The notes: generated by a model from the letters alone, not told the origin. A stretch of DNA of 23,901 nucleotides from an uncultured archaeon (GCA_964623665.1 CAZUTM010000001.1:56129-80029), one strand, 5' to 3'. Shown: positions 963 through 23,901, counted from the stretch's first letter. A program made the numbers and translations.

Positions 963-3900
963 ATGTTTGAAGACATCATCGATTTCCTTTATTCCAATCG
1001 CTTCATAGATTTATATGAGTGGGCAAAGAAGGCATCTATTCAAAATATGAATTTACTTCCCACGAATTATCTTCGGTTCTTAAACCTTTTACATGAAGGG
1101 AAAATCGATGATGCGATTGATGTATTACAGCAAATTTCCACTATTGAAGTAGAGAACGAAAAGTTGACTATCGCTCTTAATGTTCTAAAGGAAAAGCGAA
1201 ATATTCTATTGGAGATTTCTCAATATCTTTCCAAATTTGACAAGAATAAACCCTTTGTGAATGTTGTTCTTGATAAGTATATTCTCGTTGGTCAGGTTTC
1301 GGATAGTTCTGAATATTCAAAAATCAACTCTATCGAAAGGCTAAAAGAATTGGCTTCAAATCCGAATGTGTGTTATTATAATGGAAATATTATTGAGTTC
1401 AAAGGAATATCTTCTATTGAACGGCTTTCTGCCATCATAAATGATCAAGATTTTATGTCCCAAATGGAAAATATTAAGAAATATGAAAAAGTGTATTATT
1501 TTATTAGCAAAATAAACGAGAAGATGCAGCGCTATTTTTCAGAAAATAAAATCGGCATGATTGTATATAATCAAGAATTATATCTGATCAAATTTATTCC
1601 GATGTTCTCATTTGATAATTCCGCGCAACCAACGTCCGGGAAGAGGGTAAGTGTCTTAGACAATAATTTTGGAACCATAATCGGGATATTAATAAATTCA
1701 GATTTATCTTTTGGCGATATGGTCGTATTTCAAGAGGAATCTTTGAATTCTGGAGAGATGAATTTGCGGCCCTTAATCTCATTTGATTTGTCTCTGTTTA
1801 AAACTGAAGAAAAAAAGAATTCCGGGTTTACTCTCGAAACCGAGGAAGATATCAACAAATTTATTACTGCTGTAAAAGATTGGATTGATTTTGGAGTTCA
1901 AATATTATCTTCTAATAAAAAAATTGATTTGAAAAACCGACAAGATCTTTATATTTATACCAAAATGGAACTCCAAAAATTAGAAAATGAGCAAAATCTG
2001 AATATTAAAATCTCTAAGTTATCTCAATTGCTAAATTTTGATCATGACCAAGAAATGGAACGAAAAATCAAAGAAATACTTGAAAAAACCTATTTGATTT
2101 ATATCCGGGAAACCGCATCAAAAAAACTCCCTCTTAAATTAAAAGAATTGTTAAATCGGCTTATCAACCTTAAGCTGTTCAAATCGGAAGAGTCTTTTAT
2201 GAAGTTCATGAATCTCTATTCGTTCATTCTTGATAAATATTCTTTGGATCCGAAAGAAATCATAGAAAGTATTGATCTTTTGGATAAAAACTGGGATCTG
2301 AATGATCAACATTACAAAATCATTGAGAAAATCCATCTAACCGCGATCGCAAGCCTTATCGAGCCCCAAGTGGCTTCGGGAAATATTCAAGATATCCTTT
2401 CAATAATTGAAAAGAATACTCCAAAATCTAAGATACTTCAAAACAAATTGAATCTTCTAATAATCGATGTTGTGTACCATATTTATAAAAACGCCTTGAA
2501 AAAAGACACTAAGGGTGCGATCTCGAATATCACTTTCATAATGTTCTTAAGGAAATTAGCCATCCATTACGATAAAGCATTTCCATCAATATCCTTTGCG
2601 CATCAAGAGGAATCCAACAGAAGCAATGAGCCTTATAATAATATCACCTTGCTACAGCAAAAATTGGATTCATTATTTCTTAGCATTACCTCACAATTAG
2701 AATTTCTTCTCTACATGGGGGACCAATCGATCATTGAATTTCTCGAGTTAATTAAGGATTTTCCGAGCCGGATGTTAAAACCAAACATCAAAGAAACGTT
2801 AATTGGTCAAATTCTGAAGAATGCCATCGTATTAATTCCTGCCCACGGTATGTATGAACTGGGAAAGAAATTAATTGAATTTCTCGTTTCTCAGAAAAAA
2901 ACCACTCAATTCGTTTCTTTCATAACAAAATTCGTTGAGAGTTTAAATCAAAGCGCATTTAACGATATTAACAACTCAAGGTATTTGGAATCTATTGTTA
3001 TCATTTTCGATGCTATTGAAAGTTATCTTCCAACCCTTGCGATAAAAGAAGAGTATCTTATTCCGTTCAAAAGCGAAGTCCAAACCTTATTGAATAACTG
3101 GTACAAAAAAGGAAATCTTCCAAAGACCGATTTTAATCTTCACAAAAGGCTTCTTCAACGGCTTTCAATATACATCGAAAAGAATTCAGATGTCAAAATG
3201 ATGTATTATATGATTACGATTAAAGATATCCTCGAAACTAATCCTGACAATTGGACCAATCTTGATAATAAATTTTCCTTATTTATTCCCGAAATTATAA
3301 ACGATAGGAAAGTGCGAAATCTCTTTTTATCCGAAGCATACAAATGTATTGAACTGAATAAAATTGAAGATATCTTACTTTTCCAAAGAACGGTCAATAT
3401 ATTTCAATTGATCTTAAAATATCGATTAGAGATGGCTGTAGAGAATGAAATTATTGACAATCTCATCAAAGTATTTAATAAACAAATTGAGAAAACGCTT
3501 CTCTATTTTTTAACACACCAAGAGAACGAAGCAATTCAATCATTATTTTCAAAAATAAAAAATATTAAGGAAATAATTTCCGTTCCCGTTTTCCAAACCT
3601 TTTTCGACGAATTACTCTCGAAAATCGAATTCAATCATGAAAAACTGCCTTATGTTGAAAATATTCTCTCTCTTGTCCTTCAGACCTTTGAATTGATAAA
3701 TTCTATCAAAATTGAGAAGTCCGATTTTATTAAATATTTGCATATCATTACGCTTCCGATACTTTCCGATGAGAATGCGAAATCCCGGCTGTTAATCTCG
3801 CTTAAGTCGCAATTTGATGCAAAATTTGAGATTTTTACCCAAGGCCTTGTTGTCGCAGCCTCTTCCTATTACCTTTCGGAGCAATATCAATCCTATTATT

Positions 3901-4544
3901 ACACCCAATCCCAATCCAATTTGAATACAATCTTCAGTTTCTATTTTCAAATTATATTATTCAATTTAGAATTTGCCCCAATGGCCAATCAAATCAAGCA
4001 GAAAATCGAATTGCTTTTCTTCCTTTTCCATAATAACCGGATTCACCTCCAATCGAGAATCGTATTATTGAATATTCTATTTAATATTGTTAAACAATAT
4101 AATTTCTATGATCTCTTCGAATTTATCAATAACGAGATCAGCATTTGCGGGAAATTGGAATCAATTAAAGAATATCTCGATAATAAAATTAATAAACAAC
4201 AAAACTTGAAGCAAAAGACAGATGAACAAATCGATACGGATATTGAAATCCTCTTGAAAGATCAGGAAAATTACTTGAATGACTTTTTCTATCAATACTA
4301 CCTCGGATTATTCTTCTTCTATAGAAAAAACTATCAAAATGCCGAAAAATTTCTGAAAAAAGCATTTGTTTTGGATTGTCCGGAAAGCCTTAAACTTAAA
4401 AAATATCGAAATTACATGTTTCTATTGCACAAACTGAATAAAAAACAAGAATTGATGAAGATATATATCGAAGCACCATCAGATATCAAAGAAAATGAAA
4501 CCTTCAAAGAATATATTGCACCTCTCGGGCTAACTCAAGCATAA
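963..4544 (+). CDS. Large (1193 aa) hypothetical protein, apparently helical-repeat with a TPR-like C-terminal segment
   Basis: Longest ORF in the window, uninterrupted in AT-rich DNA where stops are frequent. It is K/I/L/E/N-rich. The C-terminal YYLGLFFFYRKNYQNAEKFLKKAFVLD resembles a TPR helix pair. No catalytic motif was recognised. A TATA-like TTTTAAATAA at 924-933 lies about 30 nt upstream of the ATG. Confidence 0.8.
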   Translation: MFEDIIDFLYSNRFIDLYEWAKKASIQNMNLLPTNYLRFLNLLHEGKIDDAIDVLQQISTIEVENEKLTIALNVLKEKRNILLEISQYLSKFDKNKPFVNVVLDKYILVGQVSDSSEYSKINSIERLKELASNPNVCYYNGNIIEFKGISSIERLSAIINDQDFMSQMENIKKYEKVYYFISKINEKMQRYFSENKIGMIVYNQELYLIKFIPMFSFDNSAQPTSGKRVSVLDNNFGTIIGILINSDLSFGDMVVFQEESLNSGEMNLRPLISFDLSLFKTEEKKNSGFTLETEEDINKFITAVKDWIDFGVQILSSNKKIDLKNRQDLYIYTKMELQKLENEQNLNIKISKLSQLLNFDHDQEMERKIKEILEKTYLIYIRETASKKLPLKLKELLNRLINLKLFKSEESFMKFMNLYSFILDKYSLDPKEIIESIDLLDKNWDLNDQHYKIIEKIHLTAIASLIEPQVASGNIQDILSIIEKNTPKSKILQNKLNLLIIDVVYHIYKNALKKDTKGAISNITFIMFLRKLAIHYDKAFPSISFAHQEESNRSNEPYNNITLLQQKLDSLFLSITSQLEFLLYMGDQSIIEFLELIKDFPSRMLKPNIKETLIGQILKNAIVLIPAHGMYELGKKLIEFLVSQKKTTQFVSFITKFVESLNQSAFNDINNSRYLESIVIIFDAIESYLPTLAIKEEYLIPFKSEVQTLLNNWYKKGNLPKTDFNLHKRLLQRLSIYIEKNSDVKMMYYMITIKDILETNPDNWTNLDNKFSLFIPEIINDRKVRNLFLSEAYKCIELNKIEDILLFQRTVNIFQLILKYRLEMAVENEIIDNLIKVFNKQIEKTLLYFLTHQENEAIQSLFSKIKNIKEIISVPVFQTFFDELLSKIEFNHEKLPYVENILSLVLQTFELINSIKIEKSDFIKYLHIITLPILSDENAKSRLLISLKSQFDAKFEIFTQGLVVAASSYYLSEQYQSYYYTQSQSNLNTIFSFYFQIILFNLEFAPMANQIKQKIELLFFLFHNNRIHLQSRIVLLNILFNIVKQYNFYDLFEFINNEISICGKLESIKEYLDNKINKQQNLKQKTDEQIDTDIEILLKDQENYLNDFFYQYYLGLFFFYRKNYQNAEKFLKKAFVLDCPESLKLKKYRNYMFLLHKLNKKQELMKIYIEAPSDIKENETFKEYIAPLGLTQA

Positions 4545-5092
4545 TTTCAACGAATCATATCAATTTTTTGGTAAAAGGTTCACCTTTTACGTAATGTTGG
4601 TAAAAACTGGTGAAGGATTTGAGCAACTGATGTTGGTTCAGGAAAGATGTTTGGGTAGAAAGGATTATCCATATTTTGCGCAGAGCGTCTATATTCAACG
4701 AGAATTTCCTTTCTCACCCTCTTTTTTTTATCTAAAAAATTCAAGCGAATAAAAGCAATGAAATTATATCTTCTCTTCTATGGTTTTTCATAACGAATGA
4801 TATGGCCGATAAATAAACAGCGTGTGTATTTTATTCAGAAACAAAAGAGACCGCCCGGAAAACCGAAAATTGATAGTTCTTGATCATTCGAATCAAAATT
4901 ATAGTTTGGAGCAAGAAATCAGTTAATAAGCATCTCGATAGCCCAATATATCTAAAAAAATTATAATAAAGGCTAAAATTGAAATAAAAGATAAATCAAA
5001 TCCATGAAAATGAATCAATAATCCAAGAATAAACAAATGGTCAGTCACCTTTTTTCCGAAAGCGCTTTTAAGCAAGATCTCGCTATTGACGC

Positions 5093-6685
5093 ATGGAAGT
5101 GAAAAGTATGCTTCACTCAAGAAAATTATGCATAGTAGCCTCGCTCTTTATCGGAATATTTGTTTTGGGCTCATTTATAACACCATCATTCGCCCAAACC
5201 GATGAATTGCAAGGAAAAAACTTCGATCAAGAATATTGGACGTTGAACTATAGCGCCAGCCCACCGAATGCCTCCGAACGAGCCGTTGATATCAATATTG
5301 CCTATATGAATATCGGTGGCGTGAAGACCATTTATCTTGCGCTTTTAAACATGACCGCGAATAAAAGCGATCCGTTGAAATTGGGATATGCGCCATTCCA
5401 AACCACGTATCAATACTTCAAAGTTCCGGATGGCAATCATGTACTCGTACAGAATGTCTTTGCAGGGTTAGTTGCGTATGTAAACAACGCAAGCACCAAT
5501 AATTCGGTTCCGGATGCTTCAGACAAAATCTTCTTCAGCTACACACTAAGCTCAAATTATCATCGAGCCTTGATTAGAAACGCCTTATCAAATGCAATCG
5601 GATACGACCCGTTGGGTTCAGAATCGCTTTATTCCTATACGGCAACCCCCTTCTTTGAAAGAATCGATAATGATGAAAAAATTGAATATAAATTTGGTAT
5701 CACCTACGAGAATATGTTCATTCTCTGGCACCCGGTTGCAATCGAAACCGATGATATTGAAACAACATCAAGTGCCAAGATACTTTTCAATAGAACCGCT
5801 GCCTTCTGCCGGCTTTCGAGTTTGAATTTCACATATGTGCTTTCCTATAATAAAACGGCGGATGATGGCAAGGTAAAAATGACCACCGAATATGATATCG
5901 GCCCGATCACCGACCTCTATATTCCATATGATGATCCGATAGGCACTGGAGCAATAGGAGGAATCGTATTAAATATTAGTGCAATCGATTCCGGAAAAAC
6001 ACTCTCCAGATATAATACCACTGATGCGATAACAAAACGATTGAACGGAACGGCAACATTCGGGCGATTCAGTCTTGCAGTTCTTAATTATGCACGCATG
6101 ATTGTTATAGAAAATGTGGATGCCCGTGCCAGAAACAGAATTGAGGAACAAGGCGCGATCGAAAATGCAAATGGCCAAAAAGTGGATCCTGAGAACGTGA
6201 ATGCCACGGAACAGCACCGAATTAAATTAAGAGATGCGGTCAATAAAGAAGCATTTATGATCGATTTTGCAAGCAAACCCGATTATATTTTAAATGATGA
6301 TACCGCAAACCCGATTTTGGCACCGGTTCAGCTCTATCCGAAAACAGCTATTAAGAACCCTGCGATGCTCTTGTTATATGGTTATGCAAACCGCTTTATC
6401 ATGAACTACGCAAAGAAATTCATCGAAAAACAATATCCAAATGCTGATGAAGCAAGATTAAAATTACGAATTGCCGCGCATGATGGATTGTATTATGCAA
6501 TCTGCTTCCCACGATGGAATGGGCTAAAAATAAATCAAGATCCAACATTCGTAGCTTTCACCGATCTTTCATCTGCTGCCCTCGGAAAAAAGATCGATGG
6601 CTTCTCTCTCTCATTACTTCTTTTAGCCGCCTTGGGAACCGCGTTTGCCGTTGTAATGATCAAAAAGCGCAAAGCGATGTACTGA
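5093..6685 (+). CDS. Secreted, C-terminally membrane-anchored, probably N-glycosylated surface protein (hypothetical)
   Basis: Signal-like N-terminus MLHSRKLCIVASLFIGIFVLGSFITPSFAQ. C-terminal hydrophobic helix LSLLLLAALGTAFAVVMI followed by KKRK. I count 13 N-x-S/T sequons. No enzymatic motif was seen. The start could be ATG 5093 or ATG 5108. Confidence 0.8.
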   Translation: MEVKSMLHSRKLCIVASLFIGIFVLGSFITPSFAQTDELQGKNFDQEYWTLNYSASPPNASERAVDINIAYMNIGGVKTIYLALLNMTANKSDPLKLGYAPFQTTYQYFKVPDGNHVLVQNVFAGLVAYVNNASTNNSVPDASDKIFFSYTLSSNYHRALIRNALSNAIGYDPLGSESLYSYTATPFFERIDNDEKIEYKFGITYENMFILWHPVAIETDDIETTSSAKILFNRTAAFCRLSSLNFTYVLSYNKTADDGKVKMTTEYDIGPITDLYIPYDDPIGTGAIGGIVLNISAIDSGKTLSRYNTTDAITKRLNGTATFGRFSLAVLNYARMIVIENVDARARNRIEEQGAIENANGQKVDPENVNATEQHRIKLRDAVNKEAFMIDFASKPDYILNDDTANPILAPVQLYPKTAIKNPAMLLLYGYANRFIMNYAKKFIEKQYPNADEARLKLRIAAHDGLYYAICFPRWNGLKINQDPTFVAFTDLSSAALGKKIDGFSLSLLLLAALGTAFAVVMIKKRKAMY

Positions 6686-9163: not shown

Positions 9164-10312
9164 TTAGAAGCACCGGTGGATAACTTGAGCACCGTATTGT
9201 TTGTATTCCCTGCGGGTAACCCACATTCTCTGGAAGGTCTTCAACGAAGCAAGGATAGATCCTCCAATCCAGACCGAATACATACGTTCGGGTGGTGCAA
9301 TAATCTTTACATCGACTGAATCCGCAACTTGTTCTTTGATTTCTTTGGTTAACCGTTCTTTTAATCCCGGATACATGGTGGAACCACCGGACAGAACGAT
9401 GTTTGCATACAAATCTCTTCGGAGGTCGACATCACATTCTTTGATTGCGTTAACAATAAGGTCATCGAGTGGTTGCAACTCTTTTCCGATAACGCTCGGG
9501 TTAAAGAACACTTCTGGTGCCAAGAATCTCTCAACACCGATTGTGATGGTTTCTCCATCGGGTAACATATAGACTTTTTCCATACCCGAAACCCGTTTGG
9601 CCAAGAGAATTTCTTTTTCTGGGTTCAATGCAACATAACATAATTTTTCTTTAATATCCCGAACGATTTCTTTTTCCGCACCGGTTGAGAATGCGTGTCC
9701 TTTTTGTCTTAAAAGTCTCTGTAAATAGTTGGTTATATCCCGCCCTGCGAGGTCAACACGGGCAATTGTGTGACTGAGCGCGAAACCTTCATAGATGGGA
9801 ACCACGTGCGAAACTCCATCACCGATATCAATAACACAACCAGTGGTACGTCCAGATCCGTAGAGAGAAAGGACTGCTTGCATAGAAACATACATAGCCG
9901 GAACATTGAAGGTCTCGAACATAATTTGTGCCATCTTCTCTCGGTTTTTTCTCGGGTTCAAAGGTGCCTCCGTTAACAAAATCGGGTGTTCGGAGGGATC
10001 GACTCGAAGATCAGTAAAGAAGGTGTAGTGCCAGATTTTCTCCATGGCAATCCAGTCCTCAATAATACCGTGTTCAACAGGATAATTTAATTTCAAAACA
10101 CCTTTCATCGAAAGCGCTTCTTCACCGATATAATACTCCCGCGAGTAGTGTTCTACATCAGACATAATCGAAACATATTTTGGATATCCAACGAGCGTGG
10201 GAAACACACTACGTGGTTGGTCTTCACCGGCAAAGCCGTTTTTGGACATACCAGTACCGTTGTCTACTACAAGCGGTTTCGCTGATAGGAAATCTTGTTC
10301 TTCAGCCGCCAT
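9164..10312 (-). CDS. Eukaryote-like actin (lokiactin-type Asgard actin)
   Basis: Long stretches match canonical actin motifs: [108 protein letters not shown] and [23 protein letters not shown]. The length of 382 aa is close to eukaryotic actin. Confidence 0.97.
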
Positions 10313-19042: not shown

Positions 19043-19531
19043 ATGAATCTTTCTGAAGAAGAGAAGCGATTAATCGATGTCCGTGTTTATCCGATTCGAC
19101 CCCATATCGGCGTGGGCTGTATCATTCGCTATTATGATCAAATTTTGCTTATAAAGCGGAAATATGACCCCGAAGCGGGTAAATGGTCGATTCCGGGTGG
19201 GCATCTTGAGCTGGGCGAATCGCCGGAGGAAGGTGCGGCCAGAGAAGCAAAGGAAGAAGTTGGAATCGATGTGAAAATCATTGGATTATCCGGCGTCGTT
19301 AACAAAATTCTTAAAGATAATCACGGGAAGATAAAATACCATTATGTTTTGATTAATTTCTTTGCCGAACCTATATTAAATAAAAATCAAGGTGAACTCG
19401 TGATTCGGCCTTCAGAAGAATGCCTTGATGCAAAATTTGTATCGATCTCGGAATTAAACACCTTTGATTTAACCAAATCGCTTCTGGATCATTTTATCTT
19501 TTTGGGCTTAATGAATAAGCCATGCATGTGA
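19043..19531 (+). CDS. Nudix hydrolase
   Basis: Complete Nudix box GGHLELGESPEEGAAREAKEEVGI (G-x5-E-x7-REUxEExGU). Confidence 0.9.
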   Translation: MNLSEEEKRLIDVRVYPIRPHIGVGCIIRYYDQILLIKRKYDPEAGKWSIPGGHLELGESPEEGAAREAKEEVGIDVKIIGLSGVVNKILKDNHGKIKYHYVLINFFAEPILNKNQGELVIRPSEECLDAKFVSISELNTFDLTKSLLDHFIFLGLMNKPCM

Positions 19532-19540
19532 TTGTTTTTG

Positions 19541-19562
19541 TTTTTTTTTCATGAAAAAAAAA
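19541..19562. terminator. Bidirectional oligo-T terminator: perfect 22-nt palindrome T9-CATG-A9
   Basis: TTTTTTTTTCATGAAAAAAAAA read directly. It gives T9 to the plus-strand Nudix transcript 10 nt after its stop, and T9 to any minus-strand transcript coming from the RT gene. Confidence 0.5.
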
Positions 19563-19563
19563 G

Positions 19564-19574
19564 TTTTAATTTTT
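19564..19574 (+). promoter_or_regulatory. TATA-like box (TTTTAATTTTT) that could drive a plus-strand transcript starting near 19595
   Basis: An AT-only element centred about 26 nt upstream of the 5' arm of the terminal helix of the structured element. This is the spacing expected for archaeal TATA-to-TSS. It is weak evidence in AT-rich DNA. Confidence 0.25.
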
Positions 19575-19594
19575 GAATCTTCATTTTAGTTTTG

Positions 19595-19809
19595 TGTAGC
19601 TTTGGCGTTCTCGCAAGAGAAGGCGCGATGTATCATCGTGCAGGACCGATTGCGGTATTGCTGCATTCCATAACTCGGCGATCATTTATTCAAATAACTG
19701 CCGAGTTGAATGCTACGCACAATATTTAAACAAATATCGGCGTTGATGCGCCCTATTTTGTTTCAATTTGGTCGGTCGACCAAATATTTGACTCGAAAGC
19801 AAAGCTACA
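19595..19809. ncRNA. Candidate structured ncRNA of about 215 nt next to the RT gene (possible RT template/msr-msd analogue); strand unresolved
   Basis: A GC-enriched patch in AT-rich DNA. A 10-bp terminal helix pairs 19595-19604 (TGTAGCTTTG) with 19800-19809 (CAAAGCTACA). Internal hairpins: 19608-19612/19617-19621 with a GCAA (GNRA) loop; 19623-19630/19634-19641 (8 bp, one G-U); 19645-19648/19653-19656; 19672-19679/19700-19707 (8 bp perfect, AACTCGGC/GCCGAGTT); 19739-19742/19749-19752; 19767-19773/19778-19784. T6 lies at 19815-19820 in the plus sense and T9 at 19562-19554 in the minus sense. Confidence 0.5.
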
Positions 19810-19831
19810 TATTCTTTTTTCGCTTTCTTTG

Positions 19832-19865
19832 TTTTCTCTCTCGCTGTTTTCTTTTCTCTCTCGCT
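19832..19865. repeat. 14-nt direct repeat TTTTCTCTCTCGCT x2 (period 20) inside a strand-skewed pyrimidine tract (purine-rich on the RT strand)
   Basis: Identical copies at 19832-19845 and 19852-19865. The whole 19811-19890 stretch is almost entirely C/T on the plus strand. Confidence 0.85.
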
Positions 19866-19898
19866 TCTTTGTCTCATTCTCATTTCTGTGATCGTTAA

Positions 19899-21410
19899 TC
19901 ATTTTGGAGATCCATCGATCATTTTTTTAAATTTCTGTGCTTTTTGAGGATTCACCATGTGTAGAAATGCTATTTTTCCTTGAATCTCGTTCAGTTCCCG
20001 TTCCTTTTCTTCTTTTTGCAATCCTTCTTTGTTTTCATTGAATTGGTGGATTTGAGCCCGCAATTTCATACACCATTGCCTATCGGGGTTCAATTCATCA
20101 TTTACCACGATTCCGGTTATCCGTTTCTTATGACCCTTTCGGTAATACTTAATTTTTTCAAGATTGGGCTTTAATTCTTCATCCGTAATGATTCCTAAGG
20201 AATAATAGACCATTTTATCTAAATTATGAATTGTTTGCTTGGTTGAAATGGCAATGTCATCCGCATATCTCGTATATACAAAGCCCATTTTTGTCCAAAA
20301 AGCGTTGAGTCGTGCATCCAAATTTTTTGCGTAGAGATTTGCAATCATAGGGCTCGTTGGGGCGCCTTGAGGTGCATACCGCTTTTTTCGAAATACATCG
20401 GTGCATAAACACGCAAGAAGGCCTGCAACCGGTCTTCCGTATCCAAATCCTAGAAACACTTTGTAGACGTGAAGAAAGGAGAGGGAAGGAAAGAAATCTT
20501 CAAGATCGAGTTTGATCATCGATTCCGCTTTCAAATGCGGTTTTGCGTTATCAACAATCGATTTGCCGGTGCAAAAGCCTTTGCATACGTCCGGGACCTC
20601 GGATTTTTGAAGAATCTCCTTCAAAATCTTTTTTTGTATCATTTTCAATCGATATTTTGGTGCCGAAATCATTCTCATCTTGCCGTTCGCTTTGGGAATA
20701 AAATATCGTCGATAATGGGGCGAATTATATTCTCTCCATCTCGTTTTATTGAAAAGAAGATGCTTTTTCTTTATATAATATCTTGGGTTATCCGGATCTT
20801 GTGAATATGCATAGCCTAACAATTCGTTAACACTAATATTCAGAAAATATGCGAGATCTATTATTGTCGATACGTGCGGGAGTTCGGTTCCCGGCTTCAA
20901 ATTGAAAACAAACTTTCGAGGCATAGAAGTATATACAATTTTATTTAAATTTGGTCCGAAATATACTCTTTTCAACAAAGGAAACACAGATTCAATCATT
21001 TTTACTCGTTCGAAAGGTAGCTTTGGTGTATTTTTATTAATGGCGTTCAATAAAGAACGTTTAAATCGGGTGTGATATCTCATTGAATGGGCCTTGATTT
21101 TATTATTCACATCATTGGAATGGGCTTTTCTATTCACATTATACTTGAAATTGGCTCTTATCCTTATTTCATTAACAAACTTTTGAAAATCTGCGTCAGA
21201 ATCGGTTAAAATCTTCTCTTTTATTTTCTCTTCCAAAATAGGGAATAAGGATAGTTTGTATCTTTCTAATCTCCTTATCCTTGCTCTCGACGATGATTTC
21301 TTCTTTGAGCGACGCGTGTTCGCTTGATTGTAAAAATAAAGATTCAACACGATTATTATGAAGAAAATTAAAAACAGTGTAATCCACAAGAGAAGCAATG
21401 AGCCTTCCAT
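19899..21410 (-). CDS. Retron-type reverse transcriptase with an N-terminal transmembrane helix and basic extension
   Basis: RT motifs occur in order: YFIPKANGKMRMISAPKYRLKMIQKKIL (1-2), LDLEDFFPS (3), PQGAPTSPMIANLY (4), YTRYADDIAIS (5; YADD = 20256-20267) and KRITGIVVN (7, VTG-type). The retron-specific NAxxH (DNAKPH, 20535-20549) lies upstream of motif 3. The N-terminus has LLLLWITLFLIFFIIIVLNLYFY followed by RRSKKKSSSRARIRRLERYK. Confidence 0.9.
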   Translation of the reverse strand: MEGSLLLLWITLFLIFFIIIVLNLYFYNQANTRRSKKKSSSRARIRRLERYKLSLFPILEEKIKEKILTDSDADFQKFVNEIRIRANFKYNVNRKAHSNDVNNKIKAHSMRYHTRFKRSLLNAINKNTPKLPFERVKMIESVFPLLKRVYFGPNLNKIVYTSMPRKFVFNLKPGTELPHVSTIIDLAYFLNISVNELLGYAYSQDPDNPRYYIKKKHLLFNKTRWREYNSPHYRRYFIPKANGKMRMISAPKYRLKMIQKKILKEILQKSEVPDVCKGFCTGKSIVDNAKPHLKAESMIKLDLEDFFPSLSFLHVYKVFLGFGYGRPVAGLLACLCTDVFRKKRYAPQGAPTSPMIANLYAKNLDARLNAFWTKMGFVYTRYADDIAISTKQTIHNLDKMVYYSLGIITDEELKPNLEKIKYYRKGHKKRITGIVVNDELNPDRQWCMKLRAQIHQFNENKEGLQKEEKERELNEIQGKIAFLHMVNPQKAQKFKKMIDGSPK

Positions 21411-22465: not shown

Positions 22466-23901
22466 TTGAAGCAAAAAATTACGATTCATGTGGTGGCCCA
22501 GTCGCATATCGATCTTGCGTGGTGGTGGCGTTTTGATCCCGAAACCATCAATGTGTGTACCAAACTCACTTTTGGGCCTGCGACCGAACATATGGATCGC
22601 TTTTCTGACTATCATTTTTCTCAAAGTCAAGTGCCTTTATATCGTGCGACCGAGCAGATTTATCCCGAGATCTTTTCAAAAATCGAGACTTATCTCAAAG
22701 AGGGTCGTTGGGAAATCGTGGGCGGGATGTTTTGCGAGGCGGAAGGCGGTGAACCTTGCGGAGAATCTCTTGTTCGGCAAATTATTTATGGAAAAAAATA
22801 TTGGAAACAGCGTTTCGGTGTTGATGTGAGAACCGGGTGGCAAGAAGATAGCTGGACGCACCCGTGGCAATTACCACAAATCATGAAAAAAGCCGGTATC
22901 GACTATTATATGTTTATTCGTTGTCTCGGGTCTTACAAACATCCGCTTTTTTGGTGGGAGTCTCCGGATGGGTCGAAAATCCTTGCACACCGGCCACTGT
23001 TGCAACAATGGAATTATCCAAATATTAAATGGAAATTATATGCGAAAAAGATAGCAAAAAAATATGGGATTTCCGATGTTATGATTATGATCGGGAAAGG
23101 AGATCATGGCGGTGGGCCTAAAACCAAGGAAATCGAAAAGATATTGAAATTCAGAACCAAAAATAAAAAGAGTTTTGATGTTAAATTTAATCGTTTTGAT
23201 AAATATATGGATCTCATTTCGAAAAACCCCGATTTTCCGGTATTGAAAACGGAGCTGGCTCATGAATTGGTGGGCGATCTCACAAATGTTGGAGAAATTA
23301 AAAGAGAGAATCGGGAATTGGAACAATTGCTTCTTTCAACCGAAAAATGGGCTACTATTGCTTCTTTATTATCTCCACAAATCTTTCGATTTCCACAAAA
23401 GGAGTTCGATGATGCATGGGAGTTGCTGCTCTTCAATCAATTTCATGACATCATCGGCGGAAGCGGGCTCCTCGAAGTTCATCTCGATGCATTCCGGGAT
23501 TTCGGAAAAATTCGTAGACTATTAACCGAGATATGGGCTATAACCAAGGATTCGATTATTAAATCCGCGTCCAACCGTGCAGAAAAAACCGAGGGGTGTA
23601 TTGACACAGTAGTGATTTTTAATTCGGTTTCATGGGACCGAACGGAGTATGTTGAGTTAGACCTTATGGACAACGAAGCGGAAGATTATATCATCGAAGA
23701 TAGCCATGGAAACCGATATTCTTACCAAAAAGTTCAAAAGGATTTCAAACCAACGCTGCTTACTCAAGTAAATTTGCCTTCTTTTGGCTTCATAACGCTT
23801 TTCATAAAATATATTACGGGTTCCGATAGGGGATTTAATCATTCGTGTTCGGGTGTGCAATCGAATCAAGAGGGTTCGGGTGTGCAATCGAATCAAGAGG
23901 G
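22466..23901 (+). CDS. GH38 alpha-mannosidase, N-terminal about 478 codons (runs off the right edge)
   Basis: Absent from the ORF track (non-ATG start, no stop in the window). My translation of the frame containing GTG 22490 gives ITIHVVAQSHIDLAWWWRFDPE, EGRWEIVGGMFCEAEG, WQEDSWTHPWQLPQIMKKAGIDYYMF and LFNQFHDIIGGSG, all GH38 hallmarks. The in-frame stop is at 22421-22423 and no ATG occurs before the HVV motif, so the start is TTG 22466 (MKQKITIHVV) or GTG 22490. Confidence 0.85.
   Translation, partial: MKQKITIHVVAQSHIDLAWWWRFDPETINVCTKLTFGPATEHMDRFSDYHFSQSQVPLYRATEQIYPEIFSKIETYLKEGRWEIVGGMFCEAEGGEPCGESLVRQIIYGKKYWKQRFGVDVRTGWQEDSWTHPWQLPQIMKKAGIDYYMFIRCLGSYKHPLFWWESPDGSKILAHRPLLQQWNYPNIKWKLYAKKIAKKYGISDVMIMIGKGDHGGGPKTKEIEKILKFRTKNKKSFDVKFNRFDKYMDLISKNPDFPVLKTELAHELVGDLTNVGEIKRENRELEQLLLSTEKWATIASLLSPQIFRFPQKEFDDAWELLLFNQFHDIIGGSGLLEVHLDAFRDFGKIRRLLTEIWAITKDSIIKSASNRAEKTEGCIDTVVIFNSVSWDRTEYVELDLMDNEAEDYIIEDSHGNRYSYQKVQKDFKPTLLTQVNLPSFGFITLFIKYITGSDRGFNHSCSGVQSNQEGSGVQSNQE
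23847..23901 (+). repeat. Perfect 27-bp in-frame tandem repeat (2 copies plus 1 nt at the window edge) inside the GH38 ORF
   Basis: GTTCGGGTGTGCAATCGAATCAAGAGG occurs at 23847-23873 and 23874-23900. It encodes SGVQSNQEG twice. The true copy number is unknown because the window ends. Confidence 0.9.

Follow-up and report, generated by a model that had tools for sequence, protein, structure and literature searches.

We conclude, with a probability of roughly 75%, that a small structured element in a 23,901-nucleotide (nt) stretch of DNA from an uncultured archaeon (GCA_964623665.1 CAZUTM010000001.1:56129-80029; the whole stretch is called the window below) is the RNA gene of a retron. The element occupies positions 19593-19811 of the plus strand. 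In this reading an Asgard archaeon carries a type XIII-like retron, and the element, about 220 nt long, encodes the retron's non-coding RNA (ncRNA), the equivalent of msr-msd. A preliminary description, made from the sequence alone, had read the patch as a retron msr-msd lying beside a reverse transcriptase (RT) gene. That reading is supported by the identity of the neighbouring protein as a retron RT, by covariation of the RNA and its linkage to the RT, by paired a1 and a2 arms with the G residues that mark retrons, and by a 5' module shared with bacterial type XIII retrons.

A repeat search found two terminal arms, TGTAGCTTTG (19595-19604) and CAAAGCTACA (19800-19809), that are 100% complementary and 195 nt apart, so the 10-bp terminal helix described earlier is real; it lengthens to 12 bp (19593-19604 with 19800-19811) if one G:U pair is admitted. 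The minimum free energy (MFE) of the plus strand at 19585-19820 was -85.3 kcal/mol, compared with a shuffle mean of -56.1 (z = -7.0), and 0/200 dinucleotide shuffles folded as low. The closing helix encloses seven hairpins in the MFE fold, where at least six had been described, and these include both the GCAA-capped stem (19608-19621) and the perfect 8-bp stem AACTCGGC/GCCGAGTT, which belongs to inverted repeat I1. The GC enrichment that had been claimed holds against the intergenic 5' flank (0.43 in the element and 0.15 in the flank) and is only slight against the whole window (0.38). A spacer of 87 nt separates the element from the stop codon of the RT, whose gene occupies 19899-21410 on the minus strand. 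The MFE fold also contains an extra helix that pairs G19605 and C19606 with 19623-19624. We rejected this helix because those columns form the two outer covarying pairs of the second hairpin, hp2, in all sequences. The parts of the RNA gene are as follows, where numbers beginning with L are our labels for other loci.

19553-19575, plus strand: putative archaeal promoter with an A-run and a TTTAAT-type box, resembling a transcription factor B recognition element (BRE) and TATA box; consensus of 15 elements.
19593-19604, plus strand: a1, the 5' arm of the closing helix, TGTGTAGCTTTG, in inverted repeat I3; over 15 elements its 7-bp core is 99% paired, with 4/7 pairs changed on both sides.
19605-19607, plus strand: unpaired GCG, in which G19605 is the candidate priming (branching) guanosine; the G after a1 and the G two bases on are invariant in 15/15.
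19608-19621, plus strand: hp1, msr-like hairpin 1, with a GCAA tetraloop on a stem of 5 bp; 5/5 pairs changed on both sides and 91% of cells paired in 14 sequences, also found by RNAalifold.
19623-19641, plus strand: hp2, an 8-bp stem GCGCGATG-TAT-CATCGTGC, msr-like hairpin 2 and the best-conserved module; 100% of cells paired, 4-5 of 8 pairs changed on both sides.
About 19640-19661, plus strand: hp3, an extra hairpin of the long form, from the MFE fold.
19664-19714, plus strand: hp4, a long extra hairpin of the long form that includes the 8-bp AACTCGGC/GCCGAGTT; from the MFE fold, with compensatory changes in L082, L163 and L168.
19719-19723, plus strand: single-stranded ACAAU motif at the border of the conserved 5' and variable 3' parts; ACAAU or ACAAA in relatives.
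19724-19799, plus strand: variable 3' region, putative msd (template); differences between tandem copies in L002 and L166 are confined here.
19722-19737, plus strand: hp5, which overlaps the ACAAU motif by two bases.
19739-19752, plus strand: hp6.
19767-19784, plus strand: hp7.
Directly before a2, plus strand: tail CUCGAAAG, which ends in the invariant G19799.
19800-19811, plus strand: a2, the 3' arm of the closing helix, CAAAGCTACATA; from the repeat search and the alignment.
19815-19820, plus strand: T6 run, 3 nt past the end of the 12-bp helix, the putative archaeal oligo-T terminator of the ncRNA, placed by the position of T-runs across relatives.

The element accompanies the RT from locus to locus. 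We compared the window with 14 other Asgard loci that encode members of the same RT clade; L083 came from a metagenome scan with an RT alignment, three loci came from a genome scan, and the others were retrieved by exact-protein look-up, which for the window's own RT returned no record, both RT-alignment scans being dominated by bacterial type XIII-like RTs. A homologous element adjoins the RT in 12 of the 14 loci despite their different gene contexts, giving 15 copies with the window included. One further contig, L081, stops 95 nt past the RT stop codon, at the edge of the expected element. The other neighbours vary by locus and include EamA/Nudix, elongation factor 2 (EF-2)/CCA-adding enzyme, an ATP-binding cassette (ABC) transporter, pyruvate phosphate dikinase (PPDK)/lipase, and tetratricopeptide repeat (TPR) proteins. 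Because these neighbours differ while the RT and RNA persist as the only conserved gene pair, we conclude that the RNA is tied to the RT rather than to other genes. All 15 copies of the RNA lie on the strand opposite the RT. In 12 loci they are downstream of the RT and converge on it; in L083 the RNA, at 2576-2420 (-), is upstream of the RT, at 2638-4050 (+), and divergent from it. L083 is a more distant member of the family (38% identity). In L165 the RNA is found 1.3 kb beyond the RT stop codon. Two loci carry tandem ncRNA genes behind a single RT (L002, 6017-5883 and 5784-5656; L166, 4721-4562 and 4493-4334), each with its own promoter-like box and T-run. In both loci the tandem copies are near-identical save for the hairpin or hairpins after ACAAU, which fits a variable template region.

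The 15 copies share one plan on the strand opposite the RT. In the 5' part, a1 (7-12 nt, ending in YUG) is followed by an unpaired G-N-G, hp1, hp2 and a G..GA motif, with hp2 of the type GCGAUG-NNN-CRUCGY (8 bp). The 3' part consists of optional extra hairpins and a single-stranded ACAAU or ACAAA, after which come between one and three variable hairpins, a short tail whose last base is G, and a2. The hp4 hairpin is missing from short-form elements, and in L003 and L083 the ACAAU motif is replaced by a one-base variant (UCAAU and AUAAU), still ahead of the variable hairpins. This motif may mark the boundary between msr and msd.

A comparative covariation analysis, of the sort that the preliminary description had proposed, was run, and the closing helix and the two 5' hairpins were found to covary (97-100% paired). 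In an alignment of 14 sequences, 96.6% of the hp1 and hp2 cells were paired and 9/13 pairs had changed on both sides; when the hp1 and hp2 registers were slid by 1-3 columns, pairing fell to 32-58%. The a1/a2 helix and hp2 were 99.6% paired in a full-length alignment of 15 sequences, even with the a1/a2 sequence entirely replaced between subgroups (for example, GCUUUG/CAAAGC versus UCCCUG/CAGGGA). The hp2 sequence of L083 is likewise wholly different (CUUGUUG/GACAAGG), with the architecture unchanged. Unguided RNAalifold recovered a1/a2, hp1 and hp2, and hp4 too in the long forms. A search of all loci with the arm sequences matched L082 only; because the arms covary, a plain sequence search with them fails beyond close relatives. 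In 15/15 elements an invariant G immediately follows a1, and another (19799 in the window) immediately precedes a2. Published descriptions of retrons give "two opposing G residues" and a priming G at the inner end of the a1 stem as landmarks (PMC7736814, PMC6868368), and the invariant Gs that flank the inner ends of a1 and a2 match them. The element has these features of a retron ncRNA: a1 and a2 that pair around a structured region, a G at each inner end, and short conserved 5' hairpins (hp1 and hp2).

The neighbouring protein is a retron RT by profile, sequence and fold ranking, nearer to retron RTs than to group II intron, diversity-generating retroelement (DGR), abortive infection (Abi) or defence-associated (DRT) RTs. 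It is 503 aa long, with Pfam RVT_1 at residues 238-433 (3.1e-24). Its best PADLOC model is RT_XIII (2.8e-94; next model, 1.1e-75), and the top 25 of its 49 PADLOC matches are all retron RT models. The best NCBIfam model is retron_St85_RT at 1.9e-63, a score under that model's cutoff; the Drt2 equivalog model gave 39.8 bits, short of its cutoff of 390. The retron RT motifs N288-A289-x-x-H292, Y382-A383-D384-D385 and T432-G433, the last part of (V/I)TG, are invariant in a 17-member alignment of the clade. When the protein was compared by sequence with the Protein Data Bank (PDB), the 14 best matches were retron RTs, led by Ec86 (2.7e-35) and including Ec83, Ec67, Kva2, Ec78 and Eco8. An AlphaFold model of the protein (mean predicted local distance difference test score 79) had retron RTs as its 18 best Foldseek matches, with a target-normalised template modelling score (TM-score) of up to 0.80, and group II intron, DGR, Abi and DRT enzymes ranked behind them.

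The closest relatives of this RT are 16 proteins with 37-84% identity to it over the best local alignment, and all those with a source name come from Lokiarchaeota or Promethearchaeota. The window also carries an actin gene (9164-10312, minus strand, 382 aa; Pfam Actin, 8.3e-132) of the lokiactin type. From these two observations we conclude that the window derives from an Asgard archaeon. All full-length RTs of the Asgard clade begin with a hydrophobic helix, at residues ~1-30 in the window (21321-21410), followed by an extension of ~200 aa. Most bacterial type XIII-like RTs begin instead with a soluble TRQELYDRIR..EEMIRLGFWP motif. We considered whether the N-terminal membrane helix is a novelty of Asgard RTs alone, and this is only partly true, since a hydrophobic start was found in 2/73 bacterial relatives (L005 and L046).

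The 5' module of the RNA also occurs beside bacterial RTs. From the 5' module of the Asgard copies we built a covariance model, R1, which scored 48-61 bits on the Asgard copies and 33 bits on L083 and had a single match in the window. A set of 156 bacterial type XIII-like loci was retrieved with the RT alignment. Weak R1 matches in these loci cluster a short way upstream of the RT gene and share its strand. A second model (R2) was rebuilt with 10 of the bacterial matches included. R2 gave 43 matches at E below 1, where E comes from a shortened calibration, and 42 of them were on the RT strand. When only loci outside the training set were counted, 28/33 matches fell within 1.2 kb upstream of the RT match (330-1140 nt) on the RT strand, a zone that makes up 9.4% of the sequence searched (binomial p = 3e-24). 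The R2 matches include Archangium loci. Read directly, the bacterial sequences have the same a1-G-hairpin order, including ACGAUG-UUU-CGUCGU with a trailing UGGAAU. The hp2 hairpin is seen upstream of bacterial type XIII RTs in, for example, L039, L121 and L124, and the tail CUCGAAAG joined to a2 is also found in L118 and L117. Because the module was found at the canonical upstream, same-strand site of bacterial RTs, we conclude from these sequence comparisons that the element is homologous, in its 5' module, to type XIII msr-msd RNA.

Type XIII includes proven producers of multicopy single-stranded DNA (msDNA), namely Mx162, Mx65, Sa163 and Ne144 (PMC7736814, Table 1). These bacterial systems (RT clade 10 of Mestre et al. 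2020; Retron-Mxa1/Mx162, Mxa2/Mx65, Sau1/Sa163 and Nex2/Ne144) have the same best RT profile, RT_XIII, as the Asgard protein. They are also alike in the extended RT N-terminus, a feature of myxobacterial retron RTs (PMC6868368), and in an ncRNA that runs from a1 through a G and one or more short hairpins, including the GCGAUG-NNN-CAUCGY type, to UGGAAU. Further likenesses are the a1/a2 helix with a G at each inner end and, in some bacterial members, the same tail before a2. The two differ in that the bacterial ncRNA is upstream of the RT and co-transcribed with it, whereas the Asgard ncRNA lies on the opposite strand, with a putative archaeal promoter and oligo-T terminator of its own. The Asgard window lacks a WH-SWIM or HEAT/ARM accessory gene, its host is an Asgard archaeon, and its RT starts with the hydrophobic helix that is rare among bacterial relatives. 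In addition, the 3' half of the Asgard RNA consists of several short hairpins, and two Asgard loci have two tandem ncRNA genes.

The closest solved structure by both sequence and fold is the Ec86 (Eco1) RT-msDNA complex (PDB 7V9U, 7V9X), with a Foldseek value of 2e-16 and a target-normalised TM-score of 0.75-0.77. The general logic of its ncRNA is similar, in that an a1/a2 duplex positions the priming G, the RT binds the msr hairpins, and msd is copied. However, identity is ~29% and limited to the RT core, Ec86 lacks the N-terminal extension of ~225 aa, its ncRNA sequence and hairpin pattern are unrelated, and it has a separate effector (an NDT-like protein).

By analogy with these retrons, the RNA would be transcribed independently from the BRE/TATA-type promoter ~30 nt upstream of a1, and transcription would end at the T6 run just past a2, converging on the RT gene. 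Pairing of a1 with a2 would set the unpaired G19605 opposite G19799. We propose that hp1 and hp2 serve as the msr part bound by the RT and that the variable hairpins past ACAAU serve as the template, or msd, part. The RT could then prime from the 2'-OH of G19605, the candidate priming guanosine if retrons are a guide (PMC6868368), and reverse-transcribe the RNA from G19799 towards about 19724. The predicted product is a small branched RNA-DNA molecule, an msDNA of roughly 70-80 nt.

Several points weigh against this interpretation. In none of the 15 Asgard copies does the RNA have the canonical retron placement, in which it immediately precedes the RT on the RT's own strand and is co-transcribed with it. 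At L001 (RT at 684-2147, 45% identity), no RNA copy was detected in the 6 kb examined, even with the speed filters of the covariance model off. The bacterial matches to R1 are individually weak, at most 26 bits, and the E-values of R1 and R2 alike carry the shortened calibration. The 3' half, which is indeed the variable part, contains three short hairpins in the window and lacks the one long msd stem that is typical of bacterial retrons. The covariation score of hp1 and hp2 was matched by 0/500 shuffles, a control that overstates independence because the 15 RNA copies form a small related clade. Two things nevertheless speak for a real covariation signal: the control with slid registers, and the fact that the a1/a2 and hp2 sequences turn over completely from one subgroup to another, L083 included. 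The case for msDNA synthesis is made entirely by homology.

The search for an effector also speaks against a conventional retron. Type XIII accessory genes comprise WH-SWIM (cluster 114) and WGR-like plus HEAT/ARM (cluster 216) genes (Mestre et al. 2020). Pfam and PADLOC gave no SWIM, HEAT/ARM or WGR match in the window, in a scan that covered all open reading frames (ORFs) of at least 300 aa, the Nudix gene (19043-19531) and three small ORFs, one at 22488-22829 and two others a long way from the RT. Scans of neighbour genes at eight loci with the same two resources found no conserved effector beside the Asgard RTs. The only WGR-domain ORF beside the RNA is in L168 (4621-4839, plus strand; Pfam, 7.7e-17), where it is cut by the contig end. 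A defence role is therefore unsupported at this locus. As a matter of speculation, the RT's own N-terminal membrane helix and extension are the sole candidate for an output module. We think it probable, by a modest measure, that the element makes classical msDNA.

A different outcome would be that the RNA is the dedicated, retron-homologous partner of the RT and yet is not copied into branched msDNA, acting as a scaffold or regulator or as the template of a longer or repetitive cDNA of the DRT2/DRT9 type. The several short 3' hairpins without a single long msd stem, the lack of a conserved effector gene, and the separate transcription of the RNA, sometimes from two tandem copies, could all be accommodated in this way. 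A domesticated role would also suit a family that appears restricted to a single archaeal lineage and has housekeeping genes as neighbours. DRT2 and DRT9 resemble the Asgard pair in that an RT gene is joined by an adjacent structured ncRNA, which serves as the template. However, the RT lies outside those clades; its Drt2 score is an order of magnitude short of the cutoff (39.8 bits, cutoff 390), and the DRT9 and DRT4 structures rank far below retron RTs. The Asgard ncRNA has the a1/a2-plus-G layout of retrons, its priming landmarks, the a1/a2 helix with a G on each inner end, are strictly conserved, and the RT keeps the retron-specific NAxxH and VTG as well as YADD. We therefore regard a partner RNA that is not made into msDNA as unlikely.

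The strand of the RNA bears on a second alternative, in which the structure belongs to the minus strand, either as the 3' untranslated region (UTR) or terminator of the RT mRNA or as a retron ncRNA co-transcribed downstream of the RT. The preliminary description had noted plausible transcription signals on both strands. In favor of the minus strand, the element begins 87 nt after the RT stop codon, the same region folds well on that strand (-81.2 kcal/mol, z = -7.2), and a T9 run follows there ~40 nt further on. We found four lines of evidence that agree on the other strand. First, read antisense to the RT, 23 of 225 paired cells are G:U and only 1 is a non-pair. Because those 23 cells are G:U in the antisense direction, the RT-sense strand would carry A-C mismatches in ~10% of its helix cells; in hp2, the G:U wobbles are confined to the strand opposite the RT. 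Second, the MFE was lower on the antisense strand in 11/12 elements, by a mean of 4 kcal/mol (Wilcoxon p = 0.0015).

Third, the promoter-like and oligo-T motifs are placed for the antisense strand. The AT-rich box noted earlier as TATA-like is present at ~19553-19575, and it, G19605 directly after the 5' arm, and the T6 run recur at fixed positions in all relatives. The consensus AAAA.TtTatAtta, a BRE/TATA-like box, was found at -43 to -30 from the invariant unpaired G in 15/15 elements, and at this spacing transcription would begin close to the first base of a1. A fixed distance from promoter to start is an established property of archaeal promoters. A run of at least five T begins 2-12 nt after the a2 core in 12/15 elements, whereas T-runs on the other strand occur only at +16 to +44 or are absent. 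Fourth, the RNA of L083 cannot be a 3' UTR because it is upstream of the RT and divergent from it, and the RNA of L165, 1.3 kb from the stop codon, fits no 3' UTR either. Read on the minus strand, the conserved module would also fall at the 3' end, with the order of G, hp1 and hp2 reversed relative to bacterial type XIII ncRNA. Taken together, these lines resolve the orientation, and we conclude that the RNA lies on the strand opposite the RT, which is the plus strand of the window. The G:U asymmetry and the placement in L083 reject the 3' UTR suggested earlier, and a minus-strand RNA of any kind is very unlikely.

We also considered that the locus is a decaying, non-functional remnant of a bacterial retron acquired by horizontal transfer, as the missing accessory genes and the RNA-less L001 might suggest. 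In contrast, the RT frames are intact with catalytic motifs invariant across proteins that are 37-84% identical, the RNA helices are kept by compensatory changes, and promoter and terminator signals of archaeal type have been retained at constant positions. These three observations point to continuing selection, and decay of the locus is accordingly very unlikely.

That the element is an unrelated housekeeping or stand-alone RNA (signal recognition particle (SRP) RNA, RNase P RNA, a small RNA or the like) merely lying beside the RT is the least credible explanation and can be set aside, because, although GC-enriched structured patches in AT-rich archaeal genomes are often stable RNA genes and the element has promoter and terminator signals of its own, the RNA accompanies the RT through unrelated neighbourhoods, also as tandem pairs, its 5' module stands upstream of bacterial retron RTs, and no Rfam family reached its gathering score in the window. 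The Rfam search, which had 0 matches over the whole window at gathering thresholds and, for 19400-20000 at E up to 10, nothing above chance level, agrees with the earlier remark that signature motifs of SRP RNA, RNase P RNA and tRNA are lacking.

To our knowledge, retrons have been studied almost entirely in bacteria. Retron-type RTs of archaea have been counted, at about 4% of archaeal RTs (PMC8632793), and in the literature collection that we searched we found no description of an archaeal or Asgard retron ncRNA or of a retron ncRNA on the strand opposite its RT. The locus is a concrete archaeal retron candidate, an RNA gene with predicted ends and a candidate priming G, in a small covarying family from Loki- and Promethearchaeota. 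A broader proposal, to which we give slightly less than an even chance, is that retrons function in Asgard archaea with a template RNA that has split off from the RT mRNA as an independent small-RNA gene under an archaeal promoter, sometimes duplicated with different template hairpins, such that one membrane-anchored RT makes one or several msDNAs in trans without a separate effector gene. If so, the locus would provide the first defined ncRNA of an archaeal retron, and a naturally occurring design of an RT plus a trans-encoded, swappable template. The separate putative promoter and the tandem RNA genes suggest that RT and template need not be co-transcribed, which bears on engineered retrons with templates supplied in trans. 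For annotation, pipelines that scan only upstream of the RT on its own strand would miss such an RNA. A membrane-anchored RT without a recognisable effector also raises the question of what role retrons have in archaea.

Additional observations concern the surroundings of the RNA gene. In several loci the ncRNA ends, with a2 or with its T-run, next to or across the RT stop codon of the other strand (L170, 3237-3239; L003, 5559-5563; L002, ~5647-5656), so that the RNA and RT transcription units converge head-on within 0-20 nt. In L001 another gene begins 56 nt after the RT. Between the ncRNA and RT of L165 are two ORFs, 4492-5109 (-) and 5288-5545 (-), of 205 and 85 aa, which had no Pfam or PADLOC match; they lie on the ncRNA strand, downstream of the ncRNA, and could be co-transcribed partners of it. 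In the window, a perfect palindrome at 19541-19562 (TTTTTTTTTCA/TGAAAAAAAAA) separates the Nudix stop codon (19531) from the ncRNA. The T9 half of this palindrome could serve as a terminator for the Nudix gene, and the A9 half falls on the A-run of the putative ncRNA promoter. Finally, two tandem 20-nt CT-rich direct repeats, TTTGTTTTCTCTCTCGCTGT and TTTCTTTTCTCTCTCGCTTC, 85% identical to each other, occupy 19828-19867 between the T6 run and the RT stop codon, and the matching spacers in L082 and L081 are likewise purine-rich on the RT strand.

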